51,545 nt of DNA from Nemertoderma westbladi (lineage: Eukaryota > Animalia > Xenacoelomorpha), in NCBI GenBank assembly GCA_032718475.1, contig JAUCBJ010004146.1:1-51545 (forward strand). Direction: 5' to 3'. Position 1 is the stretch's first letter; each line of letters opens with the position of its first letter. Below the pieces are notes generated by a model. It saw only the letters and a program-made list of their open reading frames with translations, was not told the origin of the DNA and did not search any database. This document shows, one piece after another, positions 240 through 32,964 of this stretch. The translations under genes and the position numbers were made by a program.

Positions 240-371
240 TTCGTCTCGCTAGCCATTCGCGGTATTTTGAAAAGCATACGAATGCTATTCTTATAAGCAG
301 TGAGCAATTTATTATGAATAGATTGTGAATAGTTTGTACTAGCCCATAGCGAGTTGCCATAAACATTAGTA
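240..371 (-). pseudogene. LINE ORF2 C-terminal remnant (post-RT region), continuing out of the 42-bp satellite
   Basis: Minus strand reads FRSYCTNVYGNSLWAS and NKLLTAYKNSIRMLFKIPR, matching the non-LTR post-RT pattern LFxxYCxxxYGxxLW...KLxVAYNNxxRxLF. Confidence 0.7.
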
Positions 372-2750
372 CAATAAGAACGAAAAATCGCACCTTTACA
401 TTCCTAGCACAACTATAAGAACGAAAAAGACGCACCTTTACATTCCTAGCACAACTATAAGAACGAAAAAGACGCACCTTTACATTCCTAGCACAACAAT
501 AAGAACGAAAAATCGTACCTTTACATTCCTAGCACAACTATAAGAACGAAAAAGACGCACCTTTACATTCCTAGCACAACTATAAGAACGAAAAAGACGC
601 ACCTTTACATTCCTAGCACAAATATAAGAACGAAAAAGACGCACCTTTACATTCCTAGCACAAATATAAGAACGAAAAAGACGCACCTTTACATTTCTAG
701 CACAACTATAAGAACGAAAAAGACGCACCTTTACATTCCTAGCACAACTATAAGAACGAAAAATCGCACCTTTACATTCCTAGCACAACTATAAGAACGA
801 AAAAGACGCACCTTTACATTCCTAGCACAACTATAAGAACGAAAAAGACGCACCTTTACATTCCTAGCACAACTATAAGAACGAAAAAGACCTTTACATT
901 CCTAGCACAACTATAAGAACGAAAAAGACGCACCTTTACATTCCTAGCACAAATATAAGAACGAAAAAGACGCACCTTTACATTTCTAGCACAACTATAA
1001 GAACGAAAAAGACGCACCTTTACATTCCTAGCACAACTATAAGAACGAAAAAGACCTTTACATTCCTAGCACAACTATAAGAACGAAAAAGACGCACCTT
1101 TACATTCCTAGCACAACTATAAGAACGAAAAAGACGCACCTTTACATTCCTAGCACAACTATAAGAACGAAAAAGACGCACCTTTACATTCCTAGCACAA
1201 CTATAAGAACGAAAAAGACGCACCTTTACATTCCTAGCACAACTATAAGAACGAAAAAGACGCACCTTTACATTCCTAGCACAACTATAATAACGAAAAA
1301 TACGCACCTTTACATTCCTAGCACAACTATAAGAACGAAAAAGACGAACCTTTACATTCCTAGCACAACTATAAGAACGAAAAAGACGCACCTTTACATT
1401 CCTAGCACAACTACAAGAACGAAAAAGACGCACCTTTACATTCCTAGCACAACTATAAAAACGAAAAAGACGCACCTTTACATTCCTAGCACAACTATAA
1501 AAACGAAAAAGACGCACCTTTACATTCCTAGCACAACTATAAAAACGAAAAAGACGCACCTTTACATTCCTAGCACATCTATACGAACAAAAAGGCGCAC
1601 CTTTACATTCCTAGCACAACTATAAGAACGAAAAATCGCACCTTTACATTCCTAGCACAACTATACGAACGTAAAAGACGCACCTTTACATTCCTAGTAC
1701 AACTATAAGAACGAAAAAGACGCACCTTTACATTCCTAGTACAACTATAAGAACGAAAAAGACGCACCTTTACATTCCTAGCACAACTATAAGAACGAAA
1801 AAGACGCACCTTTACATTCCTAGCACAACTATAAGAACGAAAAAGACGCACCTTTACATTCCTAGCACAACTATAAGAACGAAAAAGACGCACCTTTACA
1901 TTCCTAGCACAACTATAAGAACGAAAAATACGCACCTTTACATTCCTAGCACAACTATAAGAACGAAAAAGACGCACCTTTGCATTCCTAGCACAACTAT
2001 AAGAACGAAAAAGACGCACCTTTACATTCCTAGCACAACTATAAGAACGAAAAAGACGCACCTTTACATTCCTAGTACAACTATAAGAACGAAAAAGACG
2101 CACCTTTACATTCCTAGTACAACTATAAGAACGAAAAAGACGCACCTTTACATTCCTAGGACAACTATAAGAACGAAAAAGACGCACCTTTACATTCCTA
2201 GCACAACTATAAGAACGAAAAAGACGCACCTTTACATTCCTAGTACAACTATAAGAACGAAAAAGACGCACCTTTACATTCCTAGTACAACTATAAGAAC
2301 GAAAAAGACGCACCTTTACATTCCTAGTACAACTATAAGAACGAAAAAGACGCACCTTTACATTCCTAGCACAACTATAAGAACGAAAAAGACGCACCTT
2401 TACATTCCTAGCACAACTATAAGAACGAAAAAGACGCAACTTTACATTCCTAGCACAACTATAAGAACGAAAAAGACGCACCTTTACATTCCTAGCACAA
2501 CAATAAGAACGAAAAAGACGCACCTTTACATTCGTACAGTAGTACAACTATAAGAACGAAAAAGACGCACCTTTACATTCCTAGCACAACTATAAGAACG
2601 AAAAAGAGGCACCTTTACATTCCTAGCACAACTATAAGAACGAAAAAGACGCACCTTTACATTCCTAGCACAACTATAAGAACGAAAAAGACGAACCTTT
2701 ACATTCCTAGCACAACTATAAGAACGAAAAAGACGCACATTTACATTCCT
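372..2750. repeat. 42-bp tandem satellite, array 1 (~57 units; ataagaacgaaaaagacgcacctttacattcctagcacaact)
   Basis: Direct tandem repetition with point variants and 38-bp variants lacking gcac. Confidence 0.98.
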
Positions 2751-3671
2751 TTGGAATGAAGTATAAACATTTCGTCTTTTTTAAATTTAATTTAATTGAA
2801 TGGCATAATCCCTATAAATATTTAGAAGTTGCTGCAAACGAAACATTGTATTAGATAAATGTGATAAATCGTCCGCATAAAATAAATGAAACCTTTTAGG
2901 AATAAAACCTTTTACCGTTAATAGAACAACCAAATTTGCACCTGTTTAATGCAGTTACTTAGATCATCCATGTACACGTTAAATAAATATGGACTTAAAA
3001 TGCCCCCTTGTTTTGTACCATTCGTGACATTGAATTCATTTGAGTTATATTTACCCCACGAAACAAATAGTAATTGGTTACGATACCAAAAGCAAATTAT
3101 TCTTACAAAAATAACTGGTACTCCCCTAGTAATTAGTTTAGAGGATAATAGGTAATGATTACATCTGCCAAATGCCTTACTGGCATCCAACATATAAGTA
3201 AATACGTAAATACCGGGATATTATTTTCTAAATAAAATTTAACAGTCTCCTTAAAAGTGAGGACGCACAATTATGTGCCCGATTTTGATTTAAAACCAAA
3301 TTGGTTATCTGTGGTCTCTAGGTATTGTCTTATATTAGCCTCTCAAACAATTTGGAGAATGCAGTTGCAGAATGCAGAATGCATATTGCCCCCGTCTTGT
3401 CCTTAATTAAATTTAGTATCATAGACTCAATTAGTCCGGGTGGTATATAATCATGGCACAACATAGAACGCACCTTTAAAAAAATATTTTAGAAAAATAT
3501 TTTTATCAGGGAAACGTTTAATTATTTAATACTTTTTAGTTACTTTTACATGTACTTATAACGATTAGTATACAAATTAATTAACTTAAATAATGGAATG
3601 GCTAACCGTAAGTGCACGGGCCTGGTTAGTCTCCTCCCCCACTACTTACTGTATATATTTTTATCTAATGA
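498..3671 (+). repeat. Segmental direct repeat, copy 1 (satellite + LINE RT fragment + AT-rich tail)
   Basis: Near-identical to 13606-17129. Identity starts at aataagaacgaaaaatcgtacc and ends at ttatctaatga. The copies differ by a few SNPs, a 7-bp duplication near 3370 and satellite unit number. Confidence 0.93.
2751..3475 (-). pseudogene. Decayed non-LTR retrotransposon reverse transcriptase, copy 1
   Basis: LDASKAF, GTKQGGILSPYLFNVYMDDL, HLFYADDL (YADD at 2868-2879), KTKC; frameshifted. Confidence 0.9.
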
Positions 3672-3710
3672 CTAGAAAGCCTGTGGCCCTTCGGGCCACA
3701 GCTTTCTAGT
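3671..3710 (-). mobile_element. Helitron-type 3' terminus: hairpin ending in CTAG
   Basis: actagaaagcctgtggccc-ttc-gggccacagctttctagt is a near-perfect palindrome. It begins exactly where identity with the duplicate ends, and the duplicate shows an A|T site there (17129|17130). Confidence 0.6.
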
Positions 3711-3809
3711 GCACGTGCAGATGATATATGAATATGTGTGGGAGATTTGAGAACTGCATACGGAACAGACACCATCATTAAATAAAACACCACCCCCATA
3801 AGAGATAAC

Positions 3810-4935
3810 TGTCAAGTTTCAACTTTAGGCAGATTGTAAATAACAAAATTTCCAGAAAATGATCACTTTCAGATCCACCCTCTACCTGCGGACTGGTGAA
3901 ATGCAGACGGCGCTGCAGTTTGGTAAAGATGGGGTTTATGGTGAAGTAAAATGCCTGCCTTTCAAGTTTCAGCTTAAACAGATTGTAAATAACAAAATTG
4001 ATGTAGATGTTCACATTCAGACATTTCACCCTCTAGCGGTAGACTGAAGAACTGTGGACGACTCTGGGACTCCGTAAAGATACAGAATATGCTGTAGTAG
4101 ATTCCTGCCAAGTTCCAGCTCAATAGGATTAAAAAGAACCAAATGGGATGAGGTGTTCACTATCAGATATGTCGCCCTCTAGCGGCAGATGGGGGGACTG
4201 TATACAACTCTGTGACTCCGTAAAGGTACAGCCTATGCTGTAGTAGATGCCTACCAAGTTTCAGTCTAAACCGTTAGTAAATAACAAAGTTGGAGAAGAT
4301 GTTAACTTTCAGACATTTCACCCTCTAGCGGTAGACTGGGGAAGTGAATAGGATTCTGCAACCCCGTAAAGATACAGCCTATGATGTAGTAGATACCAAC
4401 CAAGTTTCAGCTCAAAATGATTAAAAAGAACCAAATGGGATGAGGTGTTCACTATCAGATATGTCGCCCTCTAGCGGCAGATGGGGGGACTGTATACAAC
4501 TCTGTAACTCCGTAAAGGTACAGCCTATGCTGTAGTAGATGCCTACCAAGTTTCAGTCTAAACCGTTAGTAAATAACAAAGTTGGAGAAGATGTTAACTT
4601 TCAGACAATTCGCCCTCTAGCGGCTGACTGTGGAACTGTAGACGACTCTACTACTCCGCAAAGATATAGCCTATGCTATAGTAGATGCCAACCAAGTTTC
4701 AGTCTAAAAGGATTGTAAATAACAAAGTTGGAGGAGATGTTAACTTTCATACATTTCGCCCTCTAGCGGCAGACGCGGGTAATGTAGACAACTCTGCGCG
4801 ACTCAGTAAAGATATAGCCTATGCTGTAGTAGATGCCTACCAAGTTCAGTCTAAATGGATTATAAATAACAAAGTTTGAGAAGATGTTAACTCTCAGACA
4901 TTTAGCCCTCTAACGGTAGACTGGGGAACTGTACG
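3810..4935. repeat. ~146-bp tandem array (8 units, partial 292-bp dimer), probably internal repeats of a non-autonomous Helitron/Helentron
   Basis: caagtt(t/c)cag-like anchor recurs near 3814, 3963, 4109, 4256, 4401, 4547, 4693 and 4841; each unit carries a ccctctagcgg-like motif. Confidence 0.85.
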
Positions 4936-4978
4936 CGCTTTTGAAGACCTTTAGCAGTTTAACCTGCCAAAATTTATA

Positions 4979-6131
4979 TGTCTTTTGGTTTATAAATAGA
5001 CTTTAACATATGACAAGTATTTAATACCAATAAACACAACATTAGCCGAAGCCAGCCTAGTGCGCGTCCATTCACCCGCTGGATATACCCGGGAGACTGG
5101 ATTTGGAGGGCTTAGATTTTTATTGCAGTGTAAGCTTACTGTATTATTCGATTGATCGTTAATAAATAATTTCTGACCAATATTATTCACTTTCGGGAAA
5201 TATTAACAGTTCCTTTAGGACGTGGCGCTCTATCTAGGTAAACAGAACTATGACTTATACTAAACACAACGGTAAGACGGTAAGGCTTATGATTCACGTA
5301 TGAGGCGCATTCTTTAGGAAATGCTTAGTTATCAGCCACAATCATGCACACTACCGGTACCGCACAATACTGCACACTAATCTGCCGACCGTCAATGAAT
5401 TTTATCATACATAAAGAGAACAGCAATTGACTCATGTAGTGCCTATCAAATAGCATTAAATTCACTACAAACCACGATAATATAAGTCGCAATCGCTATA
5501 TGTAACCTGTCTCTCTAACCTGTAGTGTATCAAGAAAATTGGGAAATTTGGGTTATTTATCGATGTTCTCCAAGTAATAATATTCAACCAACTGATACAA
5601 ATAATGACAACAGTAAATAGCATTAAGACGGTAGGTTAAGATATGATATGTGTAACACTGATAATGCAGCACTGATACGCTGATTGAACTGGACTGGTAA
5701 CAGTTATACGTTCTATAATCTAAGCCTACTAATGTTTCTTCTAAAGTCTGAAAACAATTGACTCCAGAGCCGGTGTTCTTGGCCTAGAAGCAACAACACA
5801 ACAGTAACACAGAAAACTATAAGACTGAACACGCCTAGTACGATCTGTAGAATATCTCCACGTCTAAGGCAAAAATCGCCCTGATTGGCTGTTAAGCTGA
5901 ACAAAGAACCATGTGTCCAACGGCCGTTTCCATGCCAGCAACCAGCTGTTAGATGTCGTAATCTGAATCATCAAGGCTACACTGTGCTAGAGGATTTGAC
6001 GCATTGCGGGTTTTGTGTCTTGCCATGTCCGCCAAAGCACACATATAGAAAAACAACTTTTATGTCCGTTAAAACACCCACACGGTACTTTGCGGGCAAG
6101 GGGACTGATTATATCCGCAAAAGCTTTTACA
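4979..6131 (-). repeat. Putative 3' LTR of the BEL/Pao element
   Basis: Minus strand purine-rich tgggagcgg (6140-6132) directly followed by TGTAAAA; AATAAA near 5120; possible ACA end at 4979. No second LTR in the window to confirm. Confidence 0.35.
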
Positions 6132-6208
6132 CCGCTCCCAGAAAATGGGATTCAAGTCTATAAATATACAAAATCACAGTTTCTAATATACGTAAATACT
6201 CTAAACAG

Positions 6209-6930
6209 TTAGTCTTTCTTGCGCGGACGGCGTTTACGCAGTTTTTTAAAGCTGGCCAGAGTCTTTTTCTCTTTGGGGCGAGCCACTTTACAAGGAGGGC
6301 TATAACTCCTGGGTGAAGGGTGCAATATGATTGCATCAGAGGGTGTAGGATTATGGTCGGTGTATCCGCCAGTCGAAGTGCCGGGAACGTCGGGGGAGAG
6401 GGGTCTAACGGCCTTGAGAGCGCGTTTTAGGACGGCCGCTCTTACGGGTCCTTTACGAGTGGTCTGAACGAGAGCCGTGGGTGGACCATAGGCAGTCAGA
6501 AACTTCCTGGGTTTAATGGTTCTTTCCAACTCGCGTTCGCGGGCTCGGTATTCGTAAGGCCGTCGATATACTTCCTGTAACTCGGGGTGAGCGTTAACAA
6601 ATAAGTCTCCATAGTCCGGATCCTGACGGATAAAATTGATTAGGTTATATGAATGAAGGTCGCTAGGATTAACACTCCTGAGAAATTTGCGTACGAACTT
6701 GGTTGAAATACATTCTCCGACGCGCTTCAGTAGTTCGTAACTCGATATGCGTGATTTCTGTTCGACAGAAGCGAATAGATAAGGATGGAACGCATAAACT
6801 CCTTCGTAAGCGCGTCCAGGATAATAACGATGGCGCATCACAATGTAAATCAGCGTTCGCTTCCCAAGCTCTGATGTAACGTAGTGTGATCATTTCATCT
6901 ACACTTTCCAAATCGTGATTAAAAGGGCAA
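6209..6930 (-). pseudogene. Frameshifted C-terminal continuation of the extra ORF, ending in a basic Arg/Lys-rich tail
   Basis: The +1 frame gives DCPFNHDLESVDEM..., which supplies the missing last Cys of CHHCQLKGH. A second shift near 6841 leads into the 210-aa ORF ending SFKKLRKRRPRKKD. Confidence 0.55.
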
Positions 6931-9900
6931 TCGAAACTGGTGTCCCTTTAGTTGACAATGGTGACATTGAGTCATAAATTGAGGGCAAACCGCAAAAATG
7001 TGCAAGTTATTGAGTCTGCAATACGCGCAATAAATTTCCATCGCCGGTTGTTCGTGGAAATAGGAACAGCGGACGTTTGTGTCCATGGGCGTAACATGGT
7101 CTCTCGATGTGCATAACCGACAACGTTGACGAGAAACATAGTTGGCATGGCGATAATCGTACGCAGTGAGACACTGTGGACCTTGATACCATTCTAGGAT
7201 GTAATCATTGTCGCTGTTCCGGGGCGCGATAGGCTGAATCTCCTCAGATTCTAGGCATATTGGTTCGTCTTCCCAGTGCATAGCTGAGGTGGGCGTGTCT
7301 GTCTCTTCAAGTGGACCTATTGTCTGAATTTCCACGACAGAATAACCTGTGGGGATTCGAGGTCTTTGTATAACAGAGGAGTGCAAGTTCGATATACAAA
7401 TCTCTTTGAAAATGGCAAATCCAGCGCTATCTAACTTCTCTGCAGCTGAGTTTCTTAGGCTGAGCTTGGTCAAAGCGCGGTCTTTAAATTGGCTATCCAC
7501 GTTGCGGAACGGGGTTAAAAATCGCCGGAAACATTCGAAGCGGAGGAATTTATTATGTTCATCTAGCTTAGCGAGTTTGGTCCCAAGTATTAATGGATGG
7601 GCGCGTATAGTACGACTGCACACATCGGCTAGCCAACCGGAAAGTGCGGTGTTTTCAAAGATCGTGTAGATAGCTAAGGAGGGACGGAGTGGAACACTCA
7701 TGAAGCTATACACGGCGCCAGGTGCGGTCAATGGTCCATCAAAGTATAATCGAGAATAATGGTCTCCGTATACTTGTTGATAGTTGATGGGATTTCCGAC
7801 TTTGAAATTCCATCCGTATTCCTGAAAGGCAAGATGTCCGATGGAAGTTCGTTGCACCTTTGTAATGTTGCTGGACGTATTAGCATACATGGTGCGGAAG
7901 AAACCTCGACCTTCTGCCCAGGGAGCAATCAGCTGCGTATCCACGAAAGGATATGGGATATTTTCCATATTCCGAAAGTCGTTTTGGAGATCTCCATAAA
8001 CAGCTGAGCCGATTTTAAGGATTCTTTCGTTGAACAACATCTCGAGTACGGGCTGGGGTAACATCGATCCATCGATACCCATGGCCGGTTTGCATTCGGT
8101 GTCAATGACGTAACGCTGCGCGAGTTCGAATTGTCCATGTTGGAGATTCTTTTGCGTTTCGGTGAGAGTTTCAAAGGAATAATCAATCACGTCGGAACAC
8201 GCTCGAGTAAACACGTGGGTAGAACCAGCTAATCCGCGTATGTGGATCATGCGCGTAGTTCCTAGTTCTCCGACCGGAACGCTACCTTCATTATCGTAGG
8301 TGACAACTCCATACATCTCAATGACATTAAGAGTTTCATTCCACTCTTTGGTGGCGTTCTCTAGGGTCATCCCTACTGGATGCCACAAGGTGGCGCATTG
8401 GTTAGCGTCAGGGAGATCACTATACTTCATGTGCCAAGTGGTATACGTCTCCACATTTCCATATCTTTGTATTTTCTCTTCTTCAAATAATACATCTAGA
8501 TTCCAATGGACTAATCGAGTTTTAATAAATCCATCGAGATTATAAGGAGGTTCTATATCCTTCTCGATTCGAGAAATGTTATATGGTTTTCTGAATGAGT
8601 TTACCTTTACTAACTGATCCAGATGTTTCTGCAATTGTTCGAGTTCGACAACGTCTAGAGGATTTATTAGTGGTAGAAACTTTAAATTATGCGTCGGGTC
8701 TTCTGGTTTTACCATATAATACTGAGTCAGATTAACGTAATAAGGGTGGTCTTTAATCCCATAAAACGAGTTCTGTAAAGGTCTAGCGCGTATGTTGACA
8801 TCGTGTACCATACGACGGACAAGATCCGCTCGATTGTCCGGAGGTTCAACGAGTATACCGTCAACACAAGCGGCCTCGATCGGCGGACGCTGTAACATAG
8901 GGGCGTCAGCGATAAGATTTTGCGATCCTGTACTGATATCAACCGGTTGGGGTTGTATCGTCGCGAAGAGTTTGTCTCCGAAATGTGGAACCATCGAGGG
9001 ATGACGGACGGTTTTAGAGTAGAGATCTGTCATAAGGATTTGAGCTTCGGGTTGGGCTAAAGCGGCTTCTTCTCTCTCGTCCATTTTCGTGTGTTTCTCC
9101 TCGAGTAGATTTTCTTCCGCTTGTCTCTGTAAGCGTTCATCTAGAAACTCTTGTAGAGAATACGTGCGTCCAAGCTCGATGTCCTCCTCGAGGTTTTGGA
9201 TTTCTCTATCGAACTGTGGCAAGGCTAACTCCTTCACCGATTGGACTTGTTGTTGTAATTTATGTTTCTCTAAACAATCTTGTGTTCCCTTTCCGATCTT
9301 CTGTCGAATAGCGTCTAAAGCGTTTCTTATAACGCTCTCCTCGACTTCCGTGGCGGGTTGCATCGGGTTTAATTCTGGACGATTGTAAGGATCAAATGGC
9401 GATATTAGATGCCCGCGTCCCAATCCGGCTAAGTAGGATGGGCGAATGTCTAACGAACCCACTACCGGAGCACCACCGATTAATTGTTCGGGTAGCACTA
9501 AATCTTTGAACAGTGAATATAGTTCGGGAGGATCAGTGATACTGTTAGGATCAAGAGTTTGAGGTCTCACTAAGGAATGAGGAGGCCTGACTGAGTATTC
9601 CGGAACTCTGATCATGGGTTTATTCAGTGATCGTTTAAGACGAGCGATCGTAGGTGATACGTCGAACAGGTTTCGCTCGAAACTCCCGTAAGTATAACGT
9701 GTAAAACTGTGTTTAGCGCAACGTCTCCGCGGATGTTTATGTCTTTCAGTTTGTTGGTTGGGTCTAGGGCATTCGTCACAATAATACCAAAGACGTACGT
9801 CCTGTAGAGGAAACGCGGGTGATCGTTCTCCAGTTTTGCAATATTCTTCCATTTGTTCAAAACTATCCGGGATAACAGGTAGTGGACGATCGGTGGTAAG

Positions 9901-10446
9901 ATACATCATAGTGAAATAGAGCCGTTTGAGTTCTACAATAGGGTCATGATGTATACCTTGAGGATATCGAGTCTCTAGGTTCTGCTGACTGGCGATGTTG
10001 AGATAGGTTTCTCTCAAAAATTCTAGGTAGTCGTTGAAGTCGATGCGTTTATCCGGTTCTTCAACGTTTTCTCTTTCCAGTCTGTTACGAATAGAATTTT
10101 CGTGATCTATTCTCGGTTTATCGTTACGACTCCGCTGGGTATGATATTTAAATAGAACCATTTCCCTTTCGGTGTCTACATCGTCCGTATCATGTAAATC
10201 GATAGGATGGCCGGTAGTTAGGAAGTCCATATACGTACCATTACGATGCGTATAGCGAGCGGTGAATTTTCGATAGTCCAATTCACGCGTAAGTTGCTCT
10301 TGGGACATCGGCGGTTCGATATAACGACCATCGTCCTCCGTAATGGTTGGATCGGCTTCACCGCGTATCAAGCTATCTACAAATGCTTGTAAAGGTAGAG
10401 TATATCGCTCCCTGATACCAAGATCATCTTCTATCAACTCCGTCAT
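6919..10446 (-). CDS. Retrotransposon extra ORF: 1175-aa protein with DEDDy-type 3'-5' exonuclease domain and C-terminal zinc knuckles
   Basis: Intronless ORF. ExoI GVVTYDNEG (D718/E720), ExoII LPQPVLEMLFNERILKIGSAVYGDL (D819), FVDTQ, ExoIII PLRPSLAIYTIFE (Y927/E931). Cys/His motifs CRLC..H..C, CAYC..H..C, CHHC....H; central coiled-coil-like region. Confidence 0.75.
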   Translation of the reverse strand: MTELIEDDLGIRERYTLPLQAFVDSLIRGEADPTITEDDGRYIEPPMSQEQLTRELDYRKFTARYTHRNGTYMDFLTTGHPIDLHDTDDVDTEREMVLFKYHTQRSRNDKPRIDHENSIRNRLERENVEEPDKRIDFNDYLEFLRETYLNIASQQNLETRYPQGIHHDPIVELKRLYFTMMYLTTDRPLPVIPDSFEQMEEYCKTGERSPAFPLQDVRLWYYCDECPRPNQQTERHKHPRRRCAKHSFTRYTYGSFERNLFDVSPTIARLKRSLNKPMIRVPEYSVRPPHSLVRPQTLDPNSITDPPELYSLFKDLVLPEQLIGGAPVVGSLDIRPSYLAGLGRGHLISPFDPYNRPELNPMQPATEVEESVIRNALDAIRQKIGKGTQDCLEKHKLQQQVQSVKELALPQFDREIQNLEEDIELGRTYSLQEFLDERLQRQAEENLLEEKHTKMDEREEAALAQPEAQILMTDLYSKTVRHPSMVPHFGDKLFATIQPQPVDISTGSQNLIADAPMLQRPPIEAACVDGILVEPPDNRADLVRRMVHDVNIRARPLQNSFYGIKDHPYYVNLTQYYMVKPEDPTHNLKFLPLINPLDVVELEQLQKHLDQLVKVNSFRKPYNISRIEKDIEPPYNLDGFIKTRLVHWNLDVLFEEEKIQRYGNVETYTTWHMKYSDLPDANQCATLWHPVGMTLENATKEWNETLNVIEMYGVVTYDNEGSVPVGELGTTRMIHIRGLAGSTHVFTRACSDVIDYSFETLTETQKNLQHGQFELAQRYVIDTECKPAMGIDGSMLPQPVLEMLFNERILKIGSAVYGDLQNDFRNMENIPYPFVDTQLIAPWAEGRGFFRTMYANTSSNITKVQRTSIGHLAFQEYGWNFKVGNPINYQQVYGDHYSRLYFDGPLTAPGAVYSFMSVPLRPSLAIYTIFENTALSGWLADVCSRTIRAHPLILGTKLAKLDEHNKFLRFECFRRFLTPFRNVDSQFKDRALTKLSLRNSAAEKLDSAGFAIFKEICISNLHSSVIQRPRIPTGYSVVEIQTIGPLEETDTPTSAMHWEDEPICLESEEIQPIAPRNSDNDYILEWYQGPQCLTAYDYRHANYVSRQRCRLCTSRDHVTPMDTNVRCSYFHEQPAMEIYCAYCRLNNLHIFAVCPQFMTQCHHCQLKGHQFRLPF

Positions 10447-11265
10447 ATCTGCTATCTGAGTTTATTAATATTGTAATGAGTTTATGTTTAGGCGAGCGGA
10501 CGTCGCTGCCTACCTCTCTTTGCCCCCGGACAGTGGGATTCTCAGCGCCGATGTACCGTCGTCGCGGTGTTTACGCCAACATGTAGCAACAGCACGACAA
10601 CGATAACCGGCACAAGTCACTCCACTGTCCGTCCCAAAGGCTTGGATCCACTTTAGGTTCTTTCTATAGGAGAGTTGGGCTACTTTCACAATTGCGACTA
10701 GCTACTGTAAACATACTTTAGCAGTAACATTCACCTATAAACGCACAAATTCCACACAACTGTCACCAATTGTACACATACAGGCCATTTGTCCGTTAGT
10801 CAGTGCCTTCCAGAATGTCACGTTATTACTGTGTATCCTTGGATACTAACAGTGTGCTATGTATTCTCTATGCTATGCAATGGGACAAGCTTTCTATTGT
10901 TCTTTTAACTTGCTTCTAATTCTAGCGTGGGTGTTGCTATGGTGACATTATGGAAAGCTAGCGGTAGAATTAGGGTAATTCTCATGCATACAGATCTGGA
11001 ATGCTATTTAATAGTAATTCTTTAATTGTCAATATCCTCCTTATACATGATTTTATTAATTTTATCGGCTATTGACTATATGTCGGAGATTCTCGCACTC
11101 TAATACACTCAATAGGATGAATCTCCGTTCCCATGATCTATTAATTAATGGAATTTTGGGAATGTTATAAATTGCACAAAATGACAATTTATGAAATTCA
11201 TTTAAGATATGAATTTAAATTTATTCCCGTGAATTTTATTATTTGATGGTAAAATTGACACAATT

Positions 11266-11521
11266 TTATTCCAGAGCATGTCTGGGGACCTAGGATCCTT
11301 AATTCTATAAAATTGTCTTTTAAGAGTATCGGTAAGCGCTGCGATATCTTAATTGACTAGAAATTTTAAAGGATCTGAATTTTACAGATTTTAATAAATA
11401 TTAAATTAATATTTAAGATGGGCACCGATTTATTCCAGAACTTGTCTGGGGACGTTAACCACTGATTCTAGAATTTGTCTTTCAAGTATATCGGTGGGTG
11501 CCGCGATAACTTAATCGACTA
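11266..11521. repeat. Two diverged ~95-bp direct repeats with conserved hairpins (11266-11360, 11430-11521)
   Basis: Both share ttattccaga-N5-tctggggac...ttgtcttt...tatcggt...gcgata...ttaat.gacta. Confidence 0.75.
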
Positions 11522-12066
11522 AAATTACAGATGGTCAAAAGGTTTAACAGATTTATTTGCGTTTTACGCTACTGTTATAGGGACATCACGCTACTATATG
11601 TATTATTTAATATAAAGTAGAAGAGCAATATCACACGAAGCAATGTCAGTGTGAAGAGGCAAGTCGTTTCCAAGGTCTACCCAGAGCTTGGTTTAGCCGA
11701 GACACGAGGATCTGAACTTTGCATTCCTAATACTCTGCCTACCAATAATACTTAAATATAGTAGGAGCTTTATTGTACTTTAATAAGTACTGACATGTCA
11801 TCTTACATGTAGTCTCGTATTTATAATATAATACGGACAGTAAGGAAAAAGAAAGAATTATTTCTCGCCGTCATATTAAATATATATTATGTGTAATTAC
11901 GTAATAAACACTAATATATTGCACTAACCTACTAAATAATCTAAAATAACATTCTACTAAATAAAATTAAATAAAACGATTATAATAAAGTACATAATAA
12001 CGTTCGAATATAAAAATATAATAAAAATAGATAGAATAATATAGTCATGCACCCACTCCAGACGTA

Positions 12067-13560
12067 TCACGTTGGGGAGTCCCTAGATGTTTGAGGAATT
12101 AGGGAGGTGGTCGTGGGAAGAGTGTCTTGCCTTCCATAGTTTCCGGAGAGTTCTCGGTCTCTTTCCAGTAAACATAAACGACCAACTGGGCGGTTAAGCT
12201 GTTGCGTCTCAAAGATTATGCCTGGCTTCTTGAAGTTACGCCGCATGACGACGAGTTCTACCGAGCGTACTAAACCATCATCCGAGATGTGAGTCTCGAT
12301 GATACGACCTGTCTGCCACCGCTTACGTGGAAGGTCTGAATCTACAATAAGCACCATATCTCCGGCGCTGACGTTTTCTTGCTGCGCAAACCACTTAGTT
12401 CGAAGTTGTAGCGTGGGCAGATAATGTTTCTCGAAATGGTCAGCGAAACGACGGGATAGCAACTGCATAAGTTGCCAAGTTCGACGGCAGTATTCGTCTC
12501 CGTCGGTAATCTCCGATCGTGGGAGCATGGCTACAGGTTTCTTCAGTAGGAAGTGCGCGGGTGTTAGCGCTTCCAGGGAATCGGGACTCGATGAGACTGG
12601 CATAAGCGGTCTCTCGTTGAGATAGGCAGCTATTTACTCCATTAACGTCCGCAAAAGTTCGTCGGTGAGATACGCGCACTATAACGTGGCACTATAAAGT
12701 GAAATGCGGTCTTGACACTTCTAATTAATCTCTCCCAACTTCCTCCCCACCAAGGGGCGTCGGCGGCGTTGAAGGTCCAGCTAGACGCTGTTATCCTTAG
12801 CTGATCGTCCACCTGTCTTTGGTTCCAGTCCTTCACGTATGCCTGGATTTCGTTGTTGGCACCAATGAAGTTCGTTCCCTTAACCGATCTCATGGTATTA
12901 CTAGTCCCGAAGCGAGCGATCTGTCAGAGTAAACTTAAGACGAAGCTGTTGGTAGATAGATCGTTCACCATATCGAGATGGATGTCTCTACAAGTCATAC
13001 ATACGAAGATGACACACCATCTCTTGACTATAGTCCTAGCACGATATACTTCAATAGGGCCAAATAAATCTACACCAGTATTAGTAAAAGGTGGTTCATA
13101 GAAGCTTACTCGTTCCCTAGGTAATTCTGCCTCTCGCTGTGTTAAAGGCCTACTGAATGCTTTCCTACAGGGTATGCAGTTCCTAAGAACTTGGTTCAGA
13201 GCTCTACGGGGTTTATAAAAATAATAGCGAGTTCGGATTTCGCTAAGAACTCGTTCTCTACCAGCATGATAAAGTTTACTGTGAACATCTACAATCATCT
13301 TGATTTGTACTTCAAGATTTCTAATGAGTATGGGGAATTTAGTGTCAAAGGATAATGGCGCATTGGTGAGTCTTCCTCCAACACGTATTAACCCATCTAT
13401 CATTGTGCTAGAGAAGCGATCCCTTAAGCACATCTGCGGATTTCTCAACAACAGGAAATACTTATCGGAATCCTCATAGCATTGCAGGAGTCTCAGTATC
13501 TGCTTATTGGTTTCTTCATGCTCCTGGTAACTGATTTTCTCCTTTAGGAACCGGTCGGAT
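12067..13560 (-). pseudogene. BEL/Pao pol 3' end: HHCC zinc finger, DDE integrase core and Pao C-terminal domain, with two frameshifts
   Basis: GLIRVGGRL, HSKLYHAG...CIPC, GVDLFGP, SVKGTNF (second Asp lost), PWWGGSWERL, LTPAHFL, YLPTLQLRTKW, DGLVRSV, split over three ORFs. Confidence 0.95.
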
Positions 13561-13605
13561 GTCTTATATTTGGGTAAATTTTTAATAACATGAACTAAAA
13601 ATAAA

Positions 13606-16215
13606 AATAAGAACGAAAAATCGTACCTTTACATTCCTAGCACAACTATAAGAACGAAAAAGACGCACCTTTACATTCCTAGCACAACTATAAGAACGAA
13701 AAAGACGCACCTTTACATTCCTAGCACAAATATAAGAACGAAAAAGACGCACCTTTACATTCCTAGCACAAATATAAGAACGAAAAAGACGCACCTTTAC
13801 ATTTCTAGCACAACTATAAGAACGAAAAAGACGCACCTTTACATTCCTAGCACAACTATAAGAACGAAAAATCGCACCTTTACATTCCTAGCACAACTAT
13901 AAGAACGAAAAAGACGCACCTTTACATTCCTAGCACAACTATAAGAACGAAAAAGACGCACCTTTACATTCCTAGCACAACTATAAGAACGAAAAAGACC
14001 TTTACATTCCTAGCACAACTATAAGAACGAAAAAGACGCACCTTTACATTCCTAGCACAACTATAAGAACGAAAAAGACCTTTACATTCCTAGCACAACT
14101 ATAAGAACGAAAAAGACCTTTACATTCCTAGCACAACTATAAGAACGAAAAAGACGCACCTTTACATTCCTAGCACAAATATAAGAACGAAAAAGACGCA
14201 CCTTTACATTCCTAGCACAACTATAAGAACGAAAAAGACCTTTACATTCCTAGCACAACTATAAGAACGAAAAAGACGCACCTTTACATTCCTAGCACAA
14301 CTATAAGAACGAAAAAGACCTTTACATTCCTAGCACAACTATAAGAACGAAAAAGACCTTTACATTCCTAGCACAACTATAAGAACGAAAAAGACGCACC
14401 TTTACATTCCTAGCACAAATATAAGAACGAAAAAGACGCACCTTTACATTTCTAGCACAACTATAAGAACGAAAAAGACGCACCTTTACATTCCTAGCAC
14501 AACTATAAGAACGAAAAAGACCTTTACATTCCTAGCACAACTATAAGAACGAAAAAGACGCACCTTTACATTCCTAGCACAACTATAAGAACGAAAAAGA
14601 CGCACCTTTACATTCCTAGCACAACTATAAGAACGAAAAAGACGCACCTTTACATTCCTAGCACAACTATAAGAACGAAAAAGACGCACCTTTACATTCC
14701 TAGCACAACTATAAGAACGAAAAAGACGCACCTTTACATTCCTAGCACAACTATAATAACGAAAAATACGCACCTTTACATTCCTAGCACAACTATAAGA
14801 ACGAAAAAGACGAACCTTTACATTCCTAGCACAACTATAAGAACGAAAAAGACGCACCTTTACATTCCTAGCACAACTACAAGAACGAAAAAGACGCACC
14901 TTTACATTCCTAGCACAACTATAAAAACGAAAAAGACGCACCTTTACATTCCTAGCACAACTATAAAAACGAAAAAGACGCACCTTTACATTCCTAGCAC
15001 AACTATAAAAACGAAAAAGACGCACCTTTACATTCCTAGCACATCTAAACGAACAAAAAGGCGCACCTTTACATTCCTAGCACAACTATAAGAACGAAAA
15101 ATCGCACCTTTACATTCCTAGCACAACTATACGAACGAAAAAGACGCACCGTTACATTCCTAACACAACTATAAGAACGAAAAAGACGCACCTTTACATT
15201 CCTAGCACAACTATAAGAACGAAAAAGACGCACCTTTACATTCCTAGCACAACTATAAGAACGAAAAATACGCACCTTTACATTCCTAGCACAACTATAA
15301 GAACGAAAAAGACGCACCTTTGCATTCCTAGCACAACTATAAGAACGAAAAAGACGCACCTTTACATTCCTAGCACAACTATAAGAACGAAAAAGACGCA
15401 CCTTTACATTCCTAGCACAACAATAAGAACGAAAAAGACGCACCTTTACATTCCTAGTACAACTATAAGAACGAAAAAGACGCACCTTTACATTCCTAGC
15501 ACAACTATAAGAACGAAAAAGACGCACCTTTACATTCCTAGTACAACTATAAGAACGAAAAAGACGCACCTTTACATTCCTAGTACAACTATAAGAACGA
15601 AAAAGACGCACCTTTACATTCCTAGTACAACTATAAGAACGAAAAAGACGCACCTTTACATTCCTAGCACAACTATAAGAACGAAAAAGACGCACCTTTA
15701 CATTCCTAGTACAACTATAAGAACGAAAAAGAGGCACCTTTACATTCCTAGTACAACTATAAGAACGAAAAAGACGCACCTTTACATTCCTAGTACAACT
15801 ATAAGAACGAAAAAGACGCACCTTTACATTCCTAGCACAACTATAAGAACGAAAAAGACGCACCTTTACATTCCTAGCACAACTATAAGAACGAAAAAGA
15901 CGCAACTTTACATTCCTAGCACAACTATAAGAACGAAAAAGACGCACCTTTACATTCCTAGCACAACAATAAGAACGAAAAAGACGCACCTTTACATTCG
16001 TACAGTAGTACAACTATAAGAACGAAAAAGACGCACCTTTACATTCCTAGCACAACTATAAGAACGAAAAAGAGGCACCTTTACATTCCTAGCACAACTA
16101 TAAGAACGAAAAAGACGCACCTTTACATTCCTGCACAACTATAAGAACGAAAAAGACGAACCTTTACATTCCTAGCACAACTATAAGAACGAAAAAGACG
16201 CACATTTACATTCCT
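13606..16215. repeat. 42-bp tandem satellite, array 2 (~63 units)
   Basis: Same unit and largely the same order of variants as array 1, with extra 38/42-bp units near 14000-14400. Confidence 0.98.
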
Positions 16216-16935
16216 TTGGAATGAAGTATAAACATTTCGTCTTTTTTAAATTAAATTTAATTGAATGGCATAATCCCTATAAATATTTAGAAGTTGCTGC
16301 AAACGAAACATTGTATTAGATAAATGTGATAAATCGTCCGCATAAAATAAATGAAACCTTTTAGGAATAAAACCTTTTACCGTTAATAGAACAACCAAAT
16401 TTGCACTTGTTTAATGCAGTTACTTAGATCATCCATGTACACGTTAAATAAATATGGACTTAAAATGCCCCCTTGTTTTGTACCATTCGTGACATTGAAT
16501 TCATTTGAGTTATATTTACCCCACGAAACAAATAGTAATTGGTTACGATACCAAAAGCAAATTATTCTTACAAAAATAACTGGTACTCCCCTAGTAATTA
16601 GTTTAGAGGATAATAGGTAATGATTACATCTGCCAAATGCCTTACTGGCATCCAACATATAAGTAAATACGTAAATACCGGGATATTATTTTCTAAATAA
16701 AATTTAACAGTCTCCTTAAAAGCGAGGACGCACAATTATGTGCCCGATTTTGATTTAAAACCAAATTGGTTATCTGTGGTCTCTAGGTATTGTCTTATAT
16801 TAGCCTCTCAAACAATTTGGAGAATGCAGTTGCAGAATGCATATTGCCCCCGTCTTGTCCTTAATTAAATTTAGTATCATAGACTCAATTAGTCCGGGTG
16901 GTATATAATCATGGCACAACATAGAACGCACCTTT
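16216..16935 (-). pseudogene. Decayed LINE reverse transcriptase, copy 2
   Basis: Same RT motifs as 2751-3475 (LDASKAF, QGGILSP, YADD). Confidence 0.9.
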
Positions 16936-17244
16936 AAAAAAATATTTTAGAAAAATATTTTTATCAGGGAAACGTTTAATTATTTAATACTTTTTAGTTA
17001 CTTTTACATGTACTTATAACGATTAGTATACAAATTAATTAACTTAAATAATGGAATGGCTAACCGTAAGTGCACGGGCCTGGTTAGTCTCCTCCCCCAC
17101 TACTTACTGTATATATTTTTATCTAATGATCTATTTTATTTGAAATAAATTTCATATGTGCAATTTTTGACTATGGGTGTAATAATAATAATAATAATAA
17201 TAATATAATAATAATAATAAAATAGAATTAAATAAACATGACAA

Positions 17245-19430: not shown

Positions 19431-21510
19431 TTAATCCAAGTCACTGATTCACTACTATTGAAGTTAGGATTTAATTGGAAATGAAATTTAGCCCAAATTC
19501 CAGACTTGGAGGCACTTAGGATTTGACTTGGATTTCATTAGGAATTTACTTGGAAATCGGCGCTTACTTTGATATCTGGAAGGTGGACTGACTCAGACTA
19601 TGCTTGTGCAGGTCCACTTATTCTCTATCCTGTCAATCATTATGTTGTATAGAATGGACTAGACTCAGCATAAAGTTTGCGTAGTGTTCAGTTCATTACA
19701 TTGAGGTATGGATATCGATGTCATAGGATGGAAGTGTCATATATAAATTTATATAATTAATTAGAGTGAGTTAAACTTAGTTAGAGACTACATTCATCTA
19801 TCAATAATATATCCGACATCCAATATACGTTTGTTTGGGGCCTATCCAGTTGGTTATAATAAATTGCTAGATTAGTTCCTAAGTAAATATACATTCCGTA
19901 TCCTTTGTAGTTGTAAATCATGTATCTGTTTGAACTCAGTAGAAATAATGTGTAATGCGCCATTTTGTAAAGTTCACTGTCACAACATTGAATATAGAGT
20001 TTACGTTGTTATATTAAAGAAAAACAATTTTCTATTTTGGAACTTCCAGTTGGGGAAAATCCATTATAGGAAGATTACACTCCTCCTACTGTACCTTGTA
20101 TTACCAGCCTCTGACGTAAATAATATTTAAAATATAAACTCTAATAGATGAAATCCACACACATCCGCACATAGTTAACGTCCGTCGGCCGGTGGGCTCT
20201 GGAATAATTTAAGATCGGATTGAACTTACAAATAAATGTAGGATCACAACACACACTGTATTTATTACTATTGAACATATTTTGAGTAATAAAGATAAGT
20301 AACAATGTTTGTGTAATTATTAATAGAATAAATATTAGTTTATTTTCATTTATTAGTTTAATTAATAATTAGACAGGGGCTAAAACTGGGCGACTAAATA
20401 AATGTATGTTATCCACGGGAAATGTTCATTTCCTATAGGCCTACACATTGACATTCTGCTTACTATACAAACACTGCTTGCTGTAAGAGGAGTACAGGGG
20501 TAGATAATTGGGTGTTCAATTATTATTATAGTCTTAAAAATAAATATGGGCTATTAATTATTAGCAGCCCACTTACTGCCTAACACGCTGTATCTCATTG
20601 TGTAGTTAAATATCCTTTCGGCCAATAGTAAGTCATTGATTAGTCCCCAAGGAGGGCTAGGGACTATAGCCCCCCACACCTTGCCCCCCACCCACCCCCC
20701 CCCCCTCCCTTCCCGACATAGATAAACTGTAATATTGAAGATAAACTGTAATATTGAATGATATATTTTACTGAAACACACAAGTTTCGTATTTAAACAT
20801 AACTGCACCCACAAAGCACATTACACTCTCCAAGCAGATTCCGCAACATGTCACAATCCGTATCGCTACCACTACGAAAAATAAATGACATAACATCCTA
20901 CAGGAATTAACAGACCCTTATGAGTTTAGTGGTTTGTAACAAACTTAACCTCTTGGCATATTGATATTAATATTAATTATAAATTATATTTATTATACCA
21001 TGGAAATGGTTAAATTGCCAGATCTAAAAAGTTCGCACAATAATTTAAATAAAATTATTAAAAGTTTGACGTCCGAATACAATCAGATTACGCTTTAGCA
21101 GCCCAACTACTTGTTGAGGCGCACTCAACGTGTTGGCGGGCCTATTTTACACAAGCGGCGTTACCTTTACCGTATGGTAGTTAATGTGTCCAGATGTTGA
21201 GTTAAAGCCAGTAGTGTGTTCTTTGCATATTTAACATTAGCCTATGGGGAGTATTGTTGTTGTAAGATAAGTCAGGGGAAGGGAAATACAACTCAACCAC
21301 TAGACAAAGCGGCTCTCTTTACTACTTTCAGCTATCCCGGGAGGTTGATTGACAGACACTTCTAAGCTTTGATATTTAGCCGCTCTAGGTAGACTTGCAT
21401 TAGGCAAATTCCAAGTGATTTCCTAAAGGTTATTTATTTCCTATTAGGTTCCTATTAGGATCCTATTAGGATCCAATAGGACGTTATTTGAAAGCGTTAC
21501 TGTATCTTCC

Positions 21511-22951
21511 ATGGTCTATCCCATCATAGTAGACATGTACCGAACAACAAGAGTCCCACAAGAAATGAGAACAAATAAGTTGGTGCCAGTTCCCAAGAAG
21601 GGCAACCTAACACTCTATGGTTCTTTTCGGGGAATCTCATTGATCTCGATTGCTGCAAAGCTATACAATAGAATTCTATTAAATCGCATCAGGGATCCCA
21701 TTGAGAGACTGCTCCGTGGAAATCAGAATGGGTTCCGTAAAGGTCGTGGGACCATGGAACCCATTTTGGCACTTAGAGGGATAATTGAAGAGTTATGTAT
21801 CAAAAAAGAAAGACAGGCATCTGGCTGTTATCTTTGTTGACTTCTTCAAGGCCTTTGATTCAGTCTCCCGCTCACGTATGTTCAGCATACTTTCATTATA
21901 TGGGATTCCTGATGAAATTATTGCAGCAATCAGATCAGTATACGATGGTTCGACAACATCTGTGTCTACTGTTGACGGTGACACAGAACCATTTGAAGTG
22001 TTATGGGGCGTCCTCCAGGGAGACACACTTGCACCATTCTTGTTCATAATTGTGGTTGACTATGTTCTACGCATGTCCTTAGATCATCATAATGATGATG
22101 GGGTGATGATAACTCCACCTACTGGCTCCAGAAGTCGAGGAAATCCTGCCAAGTACCTAACTGATCTAGACTTTGCTGATGACTTAGGAGTACTCTCAGA
22201 ATCACTAGAGGGAGCCCAACGGCTCCTCAGCTCATTAGAACATGCTGCTTCTAGTGTTGGTATTTTTATTAACTCCAGAAAGACCAAAATTTTGACAGTT
22301 AACTTTGAAAGTTCTCAGCAAGTCTCTGATCGGATGAGCATAAGCTCAAAGAATGGTATGCTTGAGCATGTGGACGACTTCTGTTACCTGGGATCATGGA
22401 TCCGGAAGTCTGGTGAGGACCTTCGAATACGTAAGGGAAAGGCATGGGCAGCCTTGAATAGGCTTTCCAGGATTTGGAAGTCACCGAGAATTAATCGGAA
22501 ACTTAAGGTCCGATTATTTAGAGCAGCAGTAGTTCCAGTACTCCTCTATGGGAGTCCATGCTGGGCTCTAACTGCTGAGGACACCAAATATCTGGATGGC
22601 ACATTCACAAGAATGCTACGCCGGGTTCATTGTGTCAAGTACAATGCACACATCTCCAACCAGACACTATATAACATTGGAGGTATCTCATTGGTTCCCC
22701 CAAGCTTGACACTAGAACAAAATCGCCTCCGCTTTACAGGACATTGCTTTCGCCGTGTGGACCAGCCAGTGCATAATCTTGTACTTTGGCAGCCTCATCT
22801 AGTGAATAAGCATGGTGGACAGCCCATGACTTTCTTGAGACGCATCTTAAAGGACACTGGCCTTGAAGATGCGGATGATCTAGCAAATGTCATGGGTGAT
22901 AGGGAGTTGTGGCGGCGCAATTTTGTCGACAAGCCGGCACAGCATTCTTAA
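21511..22951 (+). pseudogene. RTE-clade LINE, 5'-truncated RT with one frameshift (~21800); 3' UTR probably to ~23320
   Basis: PVPKKGNL, FRGISL, QNGFRKGR, FVDFFKAFDSV, GVLQGDTLAPFLF, DFADD, FCYLGSW, LLYGSPCW. Confidence 0.93.
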
Positions 22952-30467: not shown

Positions 30468-32675
30468 TTGCCGCTCGGAGAAGTAACTAAACCTCAGAAT
30501 AGAACTAAAGCCGTGAGGTCAATAGACGTTGACAAACTAGGCGAATTGTTAAATCCAGACGAGTTCCAATCGGCACTTCATGAAGGAGTCAACTCTGCAT
30601 GCTCATATATTACATCAGCTATAATCAACTCTTCAACCACACCAACCCCACGAAAATAAAACCTTGGTTTGACAGACAATGTCATGCCGCAAGGAAGAAA
30701 CTGACATCGAGTCTACATGCCATGCGAGAAAGACCATCAATTTGTACATATAGAACCTATAGTGATCAGAAACGAGAATACAAACACATGTTAACAAACA
30801 AGAGAAAATTGTACCAGGCGAGGAAGGAACACAAACTGATCGAGGACTGTGAGTCTGACAAAACCTCGTTTTGGAACATATTGAAAGGTCCACAACCGAA
30901 ACCTGTTGCACACCAAGTTCCACAAGAATCGTGGCTTACCCATTTCAGCAAACTGCTGACAGCAACCCGCGCTCCGAACCTGCCAGACCTACCTGAAAAT
31001 CCAAGCAACTATCTCGATGCGCCATTCAGAGCCGAGGAAATTACCGCGGCGGTCTCGAATCAGAAACTAAACAAAGCAGCCGGGCCCGATGGAGTAACCA
31101 ACGAATCTCTGAAGTGGGGTTTCGGCCATCTCCTCCCATATCTACTCGCACTATTCTCGCTGTGCTTCACAACAGCGAGTTGCCCGACTGCGTGGCTCGC
31201 CTCCTATTTACTCCCTCTGTTCAAGGGGAAAGGAGCGAAATCCTCTCCCGACAGCTATAGGGGTATAGCGCTTCTATCATGTTTATTAAAAACATATACC
31301 GCCATACTAAGCTCGAGACTATATAAATGGGCCGAGCTATTCGGTATCTTACCAGAGCAACAATACGGTTTCCGCACAGCCAGATCTACGATTATGGCCG
31401 TTAAATGCCTCTACGACCGAATAAATGAAGCCCTAGCACCATCAGGTGGACATTTATACTGTGTATTCGTGGATTTCTCTAAAGCTTTCGACTCCGTAAA
31501 CAGAGAGATCCTATGCAAGAAGCTGTCCAGTTACGGAGTTAGCAGGAAGTTCATACGTGTGATATGGGCCCTCATTGCCGTTAACTTTGTATGTATCTGC
31601 ATTGGACCGTATATCATGGACCCAATAAGTCAATCGATCGGAGTTGTTCAAGGTGACCGACTCTCACCCCTGTTGTTCAGCCTCCTCGTCCCCCATCTAC
31701 CTGCATTCATTGCTATCGCAGCCTGTTGGGTAATTATGTATGCAGACGATCTCGTTATCGCCGGTGAATCCATAGCCGTTGTACAGGATGGACTAAACAA
31801 ACTATCTGAATATTGCGAGGTCAACGATCTAAAGGTCAACATATCGAAAACCAAAGCTGTTAAATTTCGCAACGGTGGCCGGTTGGCTCGAAGCGATGTT
31901 CTGATATACAACGGTTCCCCCATCGAGTTTCAACCTTCATTCGAATATCTCGGTGTGACGCTATCAACCAAAAACGGACCTAGGTCCCATTACGACCACC
32001 TGTATCGCAAGGGGATTGCCTGTTGTACGCGAATTGCAATAAAGGTAAAACTTAACGTTGTCTCGATTGCCACAGCAAGGAAAATATGGCTAGCGATCGT
32101 CCTACCGTCTGTTTCTTACGGCTGCAACATTTTCGCTACAGAACCAAATATAATCGAACTCGACCACATCCACCGCATACGTGCGTTTTATTGGAAACTC
32201 TGGTTTGGAATCAGTAAATACGCATCGTCGACCGCAATCCTTTCCAGTATTGACCACCCCGACTCCTCAGCTATTAACCCGGTCAATCTAACTGGTTATA
32301 GGCGTCGGGTAGCCGGTCAGCTGGTAGCCAACGGTTACCATCATAAACTATGTGCCACTCGGAACTGTTGGCGGCCAATCGAGGAGTGTCGCTGTTTATT
32401 GTGTGGCCAATCAGCAATCAGCTCGGAGCACTATACAATGTGCCCGGGTATCCCAGCAACCAGTTCGGGCCTCCGTACAGGGATGTTTCTTGCGGTCCTT
32501 ACCCTAAACCAATGACCCCCCCCCCCCCCCCCCCCCACAACCAAATAAAACTTTTTAATAGCACAATATTTTATATATTATTTTATTTATTTTGTAAAAC
32601 TTTTAATAACCATGTTGTTCATTTTACTCCATATGTTTGGAATTAAATACATGCAATTTGCAATAAATAAATAAA
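30468..32675 (+). mobile_element. 5'-truncated LINE (RTEX-like; clade uncertain): RT ORF to 32515 with C-terminal Cys/His motif, 3' UTR and (aaat)n tail
   Basis: KPWFD, AAGPDG, YRGIALL, QYGFR, FVDFSKAFDSV, QGDRLSP, YADD, YLG, CLLCG...EHYTMC; frameshift near 30600-30660; aataaataaataaa at ~32662. Confidence 0.9.
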
Positions 32676-32964
32676 TTAATTTAGGCCTATCCTATAGGCC
32701 TATATGTGTATATGCGAAGAAGATAAGGTAAATTTACGTAAAGATTTTATCTTTACGAGCAGTGGTGCTGTGCGTTTTCGTTTTCGCGTAATTTAAATTG
32801 GCGTATTAAACTATAACCTGCTGTACTGGCCTAACCATACAGGCAGTGTCCTTGAGGTTCCTAACTAATTCTAATTAATACGGTATTATTCATACTTTAT
32901 GAATGAGACAGCAGAGTGATTGTTCCATGTAATATATTGTAATACACAAATTTCGAATTAAACA

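Follow-up and report, generated by a model that had tools for sequence, protein, structure and literature searches.

We analyzed a 51,545-nt stretch of DNA of Nemertoderma westbladi (contig JAUCBJ010004146.1 of assembly GCA_032718475.1; hereafter the window, with all coordinates given as forward-strand positions in it). It contains the 3' half of a BEL/Pao-type long terminal repeat (LTR) retrotransposon, in which a third open reading frame, ORF3, follows pol in the position of env. The product of this gene (P0001, 1175 amino acids) is very probably cargo carried by the element, an exonuclease-like protein that ends in zinc knuckles. Evidence on other copies came from contigs of four public sequencing runs (X1, X3, X4 and X5) that were compared with the window. 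Statements on contigs, joints and variants rest on the records listed in these comparisons, the variants being the best-supported few of 2262 and of 756. The types of the runs were guessed (X4 as DNA and X5 as RNA), and the cover of X5 was not counted as evidence of transcription.

ORF3 in a many-copy BEL/Pao-type family

The pol remnant upstream of ORF3 matched the Pfam families Integrase_H2C2 (PF17921, E 7e-8) and DUF5641 (PF18701, E 2e-21), both above the cut-off. The integrase carries motifs of the BEL type and is followed by DUF5641; this domain and the motifs WERLIRSVK, LNxRPL and LTPxHFL mark BEL/Pao elements. The remnant is damaged by in-frame stops at 12926 and 12636 and by a frameshift region near 12685, and its second catalytic Asp is lost; a first-pass annotation of the sequence had noted the lost Asp correctly but counted two frameshifts, where we found one frameshift region and two stops. 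The same annotation had placed an intronless frame of 1175 codons 1.6 kb downstream of the integrase on the same strand, followed by a candidate polypurine tract and LTR, and this arrangement was recovered (Table 1): pol ends at 12067 and the ORF3 start codon lies 1620 nt further.

Sequencing depth rose at about 4900 and remained high to about 13600 in all four runs, the spacer between pol and ORF3 included, and the flank at 2700-3433 had zero cover in X4 and X5. Summed depth does not equal copy number, and we therefore compared single X3 contigs: within 6518-9564 these had depths of 5101, 5718, 7329 and 14039, versus 57 in a contig that matches the flank without a difference (approximately 90-250-fold). 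The copies diverge by several per cent. The data support the assignment of ORF3 to a multi-copy BEL/Pao-type family, as the earlier annotation had held, and not to a host gene.

A different reading of the locus is that a BEL integrase fragment happens to lie beside another element, or a host-derived gene, to which ORF3 and the LTR belong. In its favor, this copy lacks gag and the 5' LTR, and among the contigs listed none bridges the 1.4-kb spacer from integrase to ORF3. However, the frame is on the same strand as the integrase, in the env position, intronless and present in many copies, and the depth of the spacer is high and unbroken in every run. In addition, the loose contig ends at 12071, 11808 and 10869 resemble, by eye, the adjoining window sequence, so that they appear to reflect divergence of copies rather than borders of an element. 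We consider a separate element very improbable.

The window lacks the 5' part of the element, which was truncated at 13595 by an unrelated 3.5-kb repeat consisting of a 42-bp array and a fragment of a long interspersed nuclear element (LINE); contigs of other copies extend beyond 13596 (two listed records). No second copy of the LTR was found within the window. BEL/Pao elements are expected to have a polypurine tract of about 10 nt and a pair of LTRs, each 0.2-1.2 kb long and bounded by TG...CA. A purine run at 6274 was also considered as the polypurine tract and was rejected, as it lies inside the frame downstream of ORF3 and is not followed by TG. The outer end of the candidate LTR adjoins a 146-bp tandem array, and the true boundary could lie a few bases away.

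A probable nuclease domain joined to zinc knuckles

All five residues that had been proposed as catalytic, D718, E720, D819, Y927 and E931, are present in P0001. The assignment of residues ~700-945 to the RNase D/DnaQ-like nucleases is supported by four weak, concordant searches at the sequence level. In the ESM Atlas, residues 640-1030 came closest to clusters from large DNA viruses that carry DNA_pol_A_exo1 (0.93, with 170-174 shared features); 28-51% of the cluster members have this family, and 10 of the 10 best family matches agreed. NCBIfam gave an RNase D match at 798-843 (E 0.011), and the single match of a tblastn search of 72,556 plasmids was rnd (E 10). Finally, hhalign against E. 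coli RNase D paired D819 with the ExoII residue (E 1e-4), the Asp expected there in DEDDy exonucleases. The ExoIII motif of this class is Y-x3-D. In P0001 it is either Y927-x3-E931 or, in an alternative register, Y913-x3-S917; since neither contains the Asp, we filed the domain as a DEDDy-like variant. Glu at this position is compatible with catalysis by analogy with other RNase H-fold nucleases: RNase HIII has an active DEDE site, and PhoExo I is predicted to have one as well (PMC4538837, in part).

The choice of register at ExoIII relies on a single homolog. A HMMER search over 1.84 billion representatives yielded one relative only, P0003 (E 1.3e-5), an unnamed, single-member ENA protein of 648 amino acids encoded on a contig of 9,449 nt. 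When P0003 was compared with a 15-sequence profile of RNase D/Pol A exonucleases, the whole domain was aligned (probability 90%, E 1.7e-6), and its ExoI and ExoIII windows ranked first in a profile scan. P0003 and P0001 are 28% identical over 187 amino acids. In this alignment the P0003 motif PL-x6-Y-x3-E-N-T pairs with Y927/E931, and the Tyr is conserved together with each of the four acids. Thus, YxxxE at ExoIII, first described from the window sequence, is probably right and a family trait. The alternative, Y913-x3-S917, was set aside on the basis of the pairing through PL, Y and ENT and remains a minority reading.

The two proteins also share a linker, three Cys/His knuckles and a basic C-terminus beyond the knuckles, whereas P0003 lacks the 640-residue N-terminal region and is known from the protein alone, without genomic context. 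The P0003 knuckles matched those of retroviral nucleocapsid (E 1e-4) and Air2 (E 0.06). Other searches added no relative: word-based homolog searches, each within a limited length range, gave nothing beyond P0003, scans of viral and metagenome contigs found no relative, phage tblastn had no match, and PHROGs gave chance-level matches only.

Several observations weigh against a nuclease assignment. D718/E720 was assigned to ExoI by eye, from a helix, a strand-D-x-E and two later strands that resemble P0003 with a ~30-residue insertion; it follows a predicted strand in a low-confidence model, but ranked only fourth of all windows in the profile scan and was missed by automatic alignment. Automatic alignments instead set ExoI at 753-757 and ExoIII at Y913-x3-S917, registers without catalytic acids. 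The bacterial profile scored P0001 at ExoII only (6.2 bits versus at most 2.2 in 300 shuffles), with an hhalign probability of 10%, and sequence searches of Pfam and PDB with P0001 had no match. AlphaFold2 models had a mean predicted local distance difference test score (pLDDT) of 31.3 for the full length from a single sequence and 31.1 for residues 653-1014 with one homolog. The latter model, which is too poor to inform, gave generic helix matches and no DnaQ-like entry with VIA-align and Foldseek.

Outside the nuclease segment, the CxxC/His motif and the coiled-coil-like region noted previously correspond to a cluster at residues 223-246 and to long helices at 371-453 (predicted coiled coil, low-confidence model). 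Residues 1-640 had no usable Atlas match. The three knuckles are CX2CX4HX9C (1109), CX2CX5HX4C (1140) and CX2CX4H followed by a frameshift (1161), so that the earlier count of three is right although the third is cut. They do not fit the triple box of BEL Gag, which ends in CX2-4CX3HX4H (PMC554778, in part), as the third is of the CX2CX4H type and the first is CX2CX4HX9C. Judged from its sequence, the product is not Env, in agreement with the first-pass annotation: no hydrophobic segment was found (best 19-residue Kyte-Doolittle mean 1.21) and the N-terminus is acidic, which is inconsistent with a signal peptide and transmembrane helix.

Reading frame, expression and deletion derivatives

In the copy present in the window, ORF3 is not intact. 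Its third knuckle reads CxxC-x4-H and then meets a stop, the fourth Cys being in another frame. Other copies differ here: an indel near 6939 was detected in all four runs (29%, 21%, 55% and 59% of depth) and one near 6832 in three of them (3%, under 1%, 44% and 0%). The length of a deep X3 contig that covers 6518-6869 differs as well. Together, the two indels place ORF3 and a downstream frame of 226 codons (P0002) in one frame of ~1,400 codons in some copies. P0002 ends in a tail with 14 K/R in 26 residues. Its likeness to the part of P0003 after the knuckles was seen by eye only, as the two did not match significantly in a BLAST comparison. P0002 is probably the C-terminal part of ORF3, split by frameshifts near 6939 and 6832. 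It should be noted, however, that the 6832 indel accounts for just 3% of depth in X1 and is absent from X5. The previous claims that ORF3 is intact over 3.5 kb, and that it is so while the integrase decayed, were thus not borne out; both genes are damaged in this copy.

Among the best-supported 40 of 2262 differences, 14 of the 21 in ORF3 were synonymous, versus an expected share of 0.29 that depends on an assumed transition weight (p 0.0004). With three further ORF3 differences, all non-synonymous, the count becomes 14 of 24; for the downstream frame it is one of two. As these variants were picked by support (the best few of 2262 and 756) and are not a random sample, the excess is a hint of purifying selection on ORF3 and not a ratio of non-synonymous to synonymous rates.

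Internal deletions that remove the nuclease were also observed, at 7272-10077 in three of the four runs and at 6370-9092 in one. Copies with such joints are non-autonomous derivatives. A further joint within ORF3 is found at 10209-10419, and some of the joints are deep (2918 in X4, 5167 in X3). The 7272-10077 joint was considered as a splice junction and rejected, as it has 5 nt of microhomology and, by eye, GT-AG is absent in every register.

One X4 contig (depth 493) joins LTR position 5520 to the ORF3 leader. Of its 19 bridging letters, 13 fit 10645-10663 and only 4 fit the other side, and the joint falls exactly between CAG/GT in the LTR and a pyrimidine tract with TAG before the leader. 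The chance of a bare GT..AG is 0.0033 per joint, which is only suggestive because about 15 joints are listed per table. However, the frequencies of an AG/GT donor (0.002) and of the pyrimidine tract (0.001) make a chance occurrence unlikely. ORF3 is likely to be made from a spliced LTR-to-ORF3 RNA in the manner of env. Against this, the joint is among those listed for one run of four, X4, which was guessed to be DNA, and an X3 loose end at 10659 lacks, by eye, an acceptor AG. A spliced RNA would be without the primer site; hence, presumably, either X4 is RNA, or the joined molecule is DNA that arose by retroposition or deletion. X4 depth is skewed to 3' and could not be used to rank the genes.

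Table 1. Features of the element in the window
Feature	Position	Strand	Basis or detail
BEL/Pao-type pol 3' remnant (integrase zinc finger, core, DUF5641)	12067..13595	-	Pfam, frames
AT-rich non-coding spacer, 1403 nt, 32.5% GC	10664..12066	-	ends in pyrimidine tract and AG acceptor
Leader, 217 nt, predicted acceptor to ORF3 start	10447..10663	-	one upstream ATG
ORF3, 1175 amino acids	6919..10446	-	intronless open frame
ORF3 nuclease segment	7600..8350	-	
Three zinc knuckles	6922..7122	-	sequence
226-codon open frame, very basic end	6209..6889	-	frame; likeness to P0003
Candidate polypurine tract, 8 nt, 7 purines	6132..6139	-	directly before LTR; position only, weak
Candidate 3' LTR, 1202 bp, TGTA...TACA ends	4930..6131	-	AATAAA at 5124, donor at 5520/5519

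The spacer contains a direct repeat of ~127 nt (11265-11391 and 11429-11554, 74% identical), possibly an RNA or promoter element; an Rfam scan of 3600-13700 gave no real match. The truncated element is bracketed by two copies, at 368-3671 and 13600-17129, of the 3.3-3.5 kb repeat that cuts it at 13595. The LINE fragment in this repeat is of the reverse transcriptase, and its unique part is 98.9% identical between the copies; it is either a recent duplication or an assembly artefact. A near-perfect hairpin beginning with CTAG lies at the end of the first of these segments (3670-3711; chance-level Rfam match only). The 146-bp array in or beside which the LTR sits has ~7 units (3813-4931). The window as a whole is repeat-rich animal DNA. 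It further contains an activin type II receptor-like sequence, with the ectodomain, transmembrane segment and most of the kinase in one long exon (32962-34407, +), LINE fragments at 21448-22951 (+) and 30584-32515 (+), with a reverse transcriptase detected by Pfam, and at 50300-51544 (+), endonuclease-like by eye, a tandem array of 32-bp units (35141-36500) and a G-rich 27-bp satellite of 11 kb with extreme GC skew (39260-50560).

Possible role of the putative nuclease and relation to known elements

DEDDy genes in the same slot were previously described in bdelloid rotifers, and this precedent, which the first-pass annotation had cited, is real: the Juno and Vesta LTR elements and the Athena/Terminons carry a DEDDy ORF3 with a DEED motif and without a coiled coil, and the enzyme class was captured at least twice (PMC5408684, in part; see also the reviews PMC6431247, PMC5718144 and PMC6338049, in part). 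As in rotifers, the Nemertoderma gene is an RNase D-like gene after pol, with a changed catalytic motif and no transmembrane segment. It differs in its BEL/Pao-type host, in its D-E-D-E site with YxxxE, in its size (1175 to ~1,400 amino acids, with coiled coil, three knuckles and basic tail) and in belonging to a high-copy family. Compared with the RNase D/WRN/EXD/Mut-7/Rrp6 enzymes (PF01612, TIGR01388), it has the same order of the proposed ExoI-II-III motifs, the ExoII segment, DTQ after it and PL-x6-Y before ExoIII. It is set apart by Glu at ExoIII and by about 30 residues that, by eye, are inserted behind the third strand; its scores also fall far under the family cut-offs, and no HRDC domain was detected. 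It shares its position, and a candidate LTR within the 0.2-1.2 kb range, with the env-like third genes of the BEL/Pao elements Cer13 and Atlas (PMC8742986; PMC9094657, in part), but has no signal peptide or transmembrane helix and appears to encode an enzyme instead of a glycoprotein. An exonuclease in Cer13 had also been invoked as a precedent, which we could not verify: Cer13 is not mentioned in PMC5408684, and descriptions of it are of a Pao element whose Env resembles that of phleboviruses (PMC9094657, in part). A search of open-access papers, which did not extend to Repbase or to subscription journals, gave no description of a BEL/Pao element with an exonuclease ORF, and the word exonuclease is absent from PMC3118150. 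DEDDy ORF3s are known from rotifer Gypsy-like elements, and we found none described in BEL/Pao elements or fused to knuckles.

What the protein does can be proposed by analogy. Our preferred proposal, held tentatively and at somewhat less than an even chance, is that ORF3 encodes a 3'-5' RNA exonuclease with an accessory role, opposing the silencing or surveillance of the element's RNA by the host. Transcription would start in the 5' LTR, and the LTR donor would be spliced to the acceptor 217 nt before the ATG, as the one contig suggests. Unbroken copies would then make the ~1,400-residue protein, judging by the indels of other copies and by the homolog. From its motifs, the basic tail may direct it to the nucleus, the coiled coil may form oligomers and the knuckles may hold single-stranded RNA. 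At the D-E-D-E site RNA would be shortened or degraded from its 3' end, the most likely targets being antisense RNAs or small-RNA precursors directed against the element. The protein would work in trans, because copies without most of ORF3 exist. A gene that is separately expressed, dispensable in cis and missing from most BEL/Pao elements has the character of an accessory factor, and related DEDDy enzymes are involved in small-RNA pathways and in the processing of RNA 3' ends (PMC5408684, in part); it is on these two grounds that we favor a counter-silencing nuclease over its rivals. It should be noted, however, that in rotifers neither copy number nor silencing was clearly linked to the DEDDy ORF3s (PMC5408684, in part).

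The most serious rival, though an unlikely one, is a chaperone similar to Rev/CERV or ORF1p, whose knuckles, coiled coil and tail would bind unspliced genomic RNA for export or packaging, and whose nuclease would trim the 3' end of RNA made by the element itself. In C. elegans, CERV of the Cer1 element is made from a spliced mRNA and required for genomic RNA export (PMC10309623, in part), and the presumed spliced expression and nuclear-type basic tail of ORF3 parallel it; the nucleocapsid-like knuckles of P0003 also fit, and 3'-end processing of element RNA was proposed for rotifers (PMC5408684, in part). The comparison is by description only: both are accessory LTR-element proteins, and nuclear localization is a feature of CERV, but Cer1 is a Gypsy element and no nuclease is described for CERV in the available text. 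Moreover, a conserved four-acid active site is not needed for an export factor, and gag and pol alone suffice for most BEL/Pao elements (PMC8742986), so such a step is not universal.

Two further possibilities, which we regard as about equally improbable, concern the active site. The enzyme might act on DNA during reverse transcription, proofreading or clearing aberrant cDNA of an unusually long element (an estimated ~14 kb, assuming a gag-pol of usual length). DEDDy enzymes can use single-stranded DNA (PMC5408684, in part), and the nearest Atlas clusters carry the Pol A proofreading family and come from large DNA viruses. However, RNase D gave the best profile matches, the gene is separate and probably spliced rather than a domain of Pol, and the copies are several per cent apart. 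Alternatively, the fold could be catalytically dead and bind RNA or decoy host factors of the PIWI-interacting RNA (piRNA) pathway, like EXD1 or Maelstrom. Glu at ExoIII and the alternative registers without acids are consistent with this, as is the action of dead DEDD derivatives in piRNA biogenesis (PMC5408684, in part); on the other hand, P0003 conserves the Tyr and all four acids at just 28% identity, and DEDE sites can be active, as discussed above.

A bolder version of the counter-silencing proposal, which we consider rather unlikely, is that P0001 and P0003 represent a new mobile-element protein family with at least two distant members, in which a D-E-D-E RNase D-type exonuclease is fused to Air/nucleocapsid-like knuckles. 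Such a protein, expressed by splicing, would be a one-chain mimic of Rrp6 plus TRAMP and a suppressor of piRNA or small interfering RNA (siRNA) silencing.

Few self-encoded defenses against small-RNA silencing are known in animal retrotransposons. If ORF3 trims only the element's own RNA, it would be a modest addition to known cargo. In either case, the element extends the arrangement of a nuclease in the env slot to a BEL/Pao-type, high-copy family, and adds a candidate splice junction, natural deletions that remove the nuclease, a second nuclease-knuckle protein and signs of purifying selection. These features make the role of env-slot nucleases testable. If the protein does suppress piRNA or siRNA silencing enzymatically, this would explain the expansion of the family.

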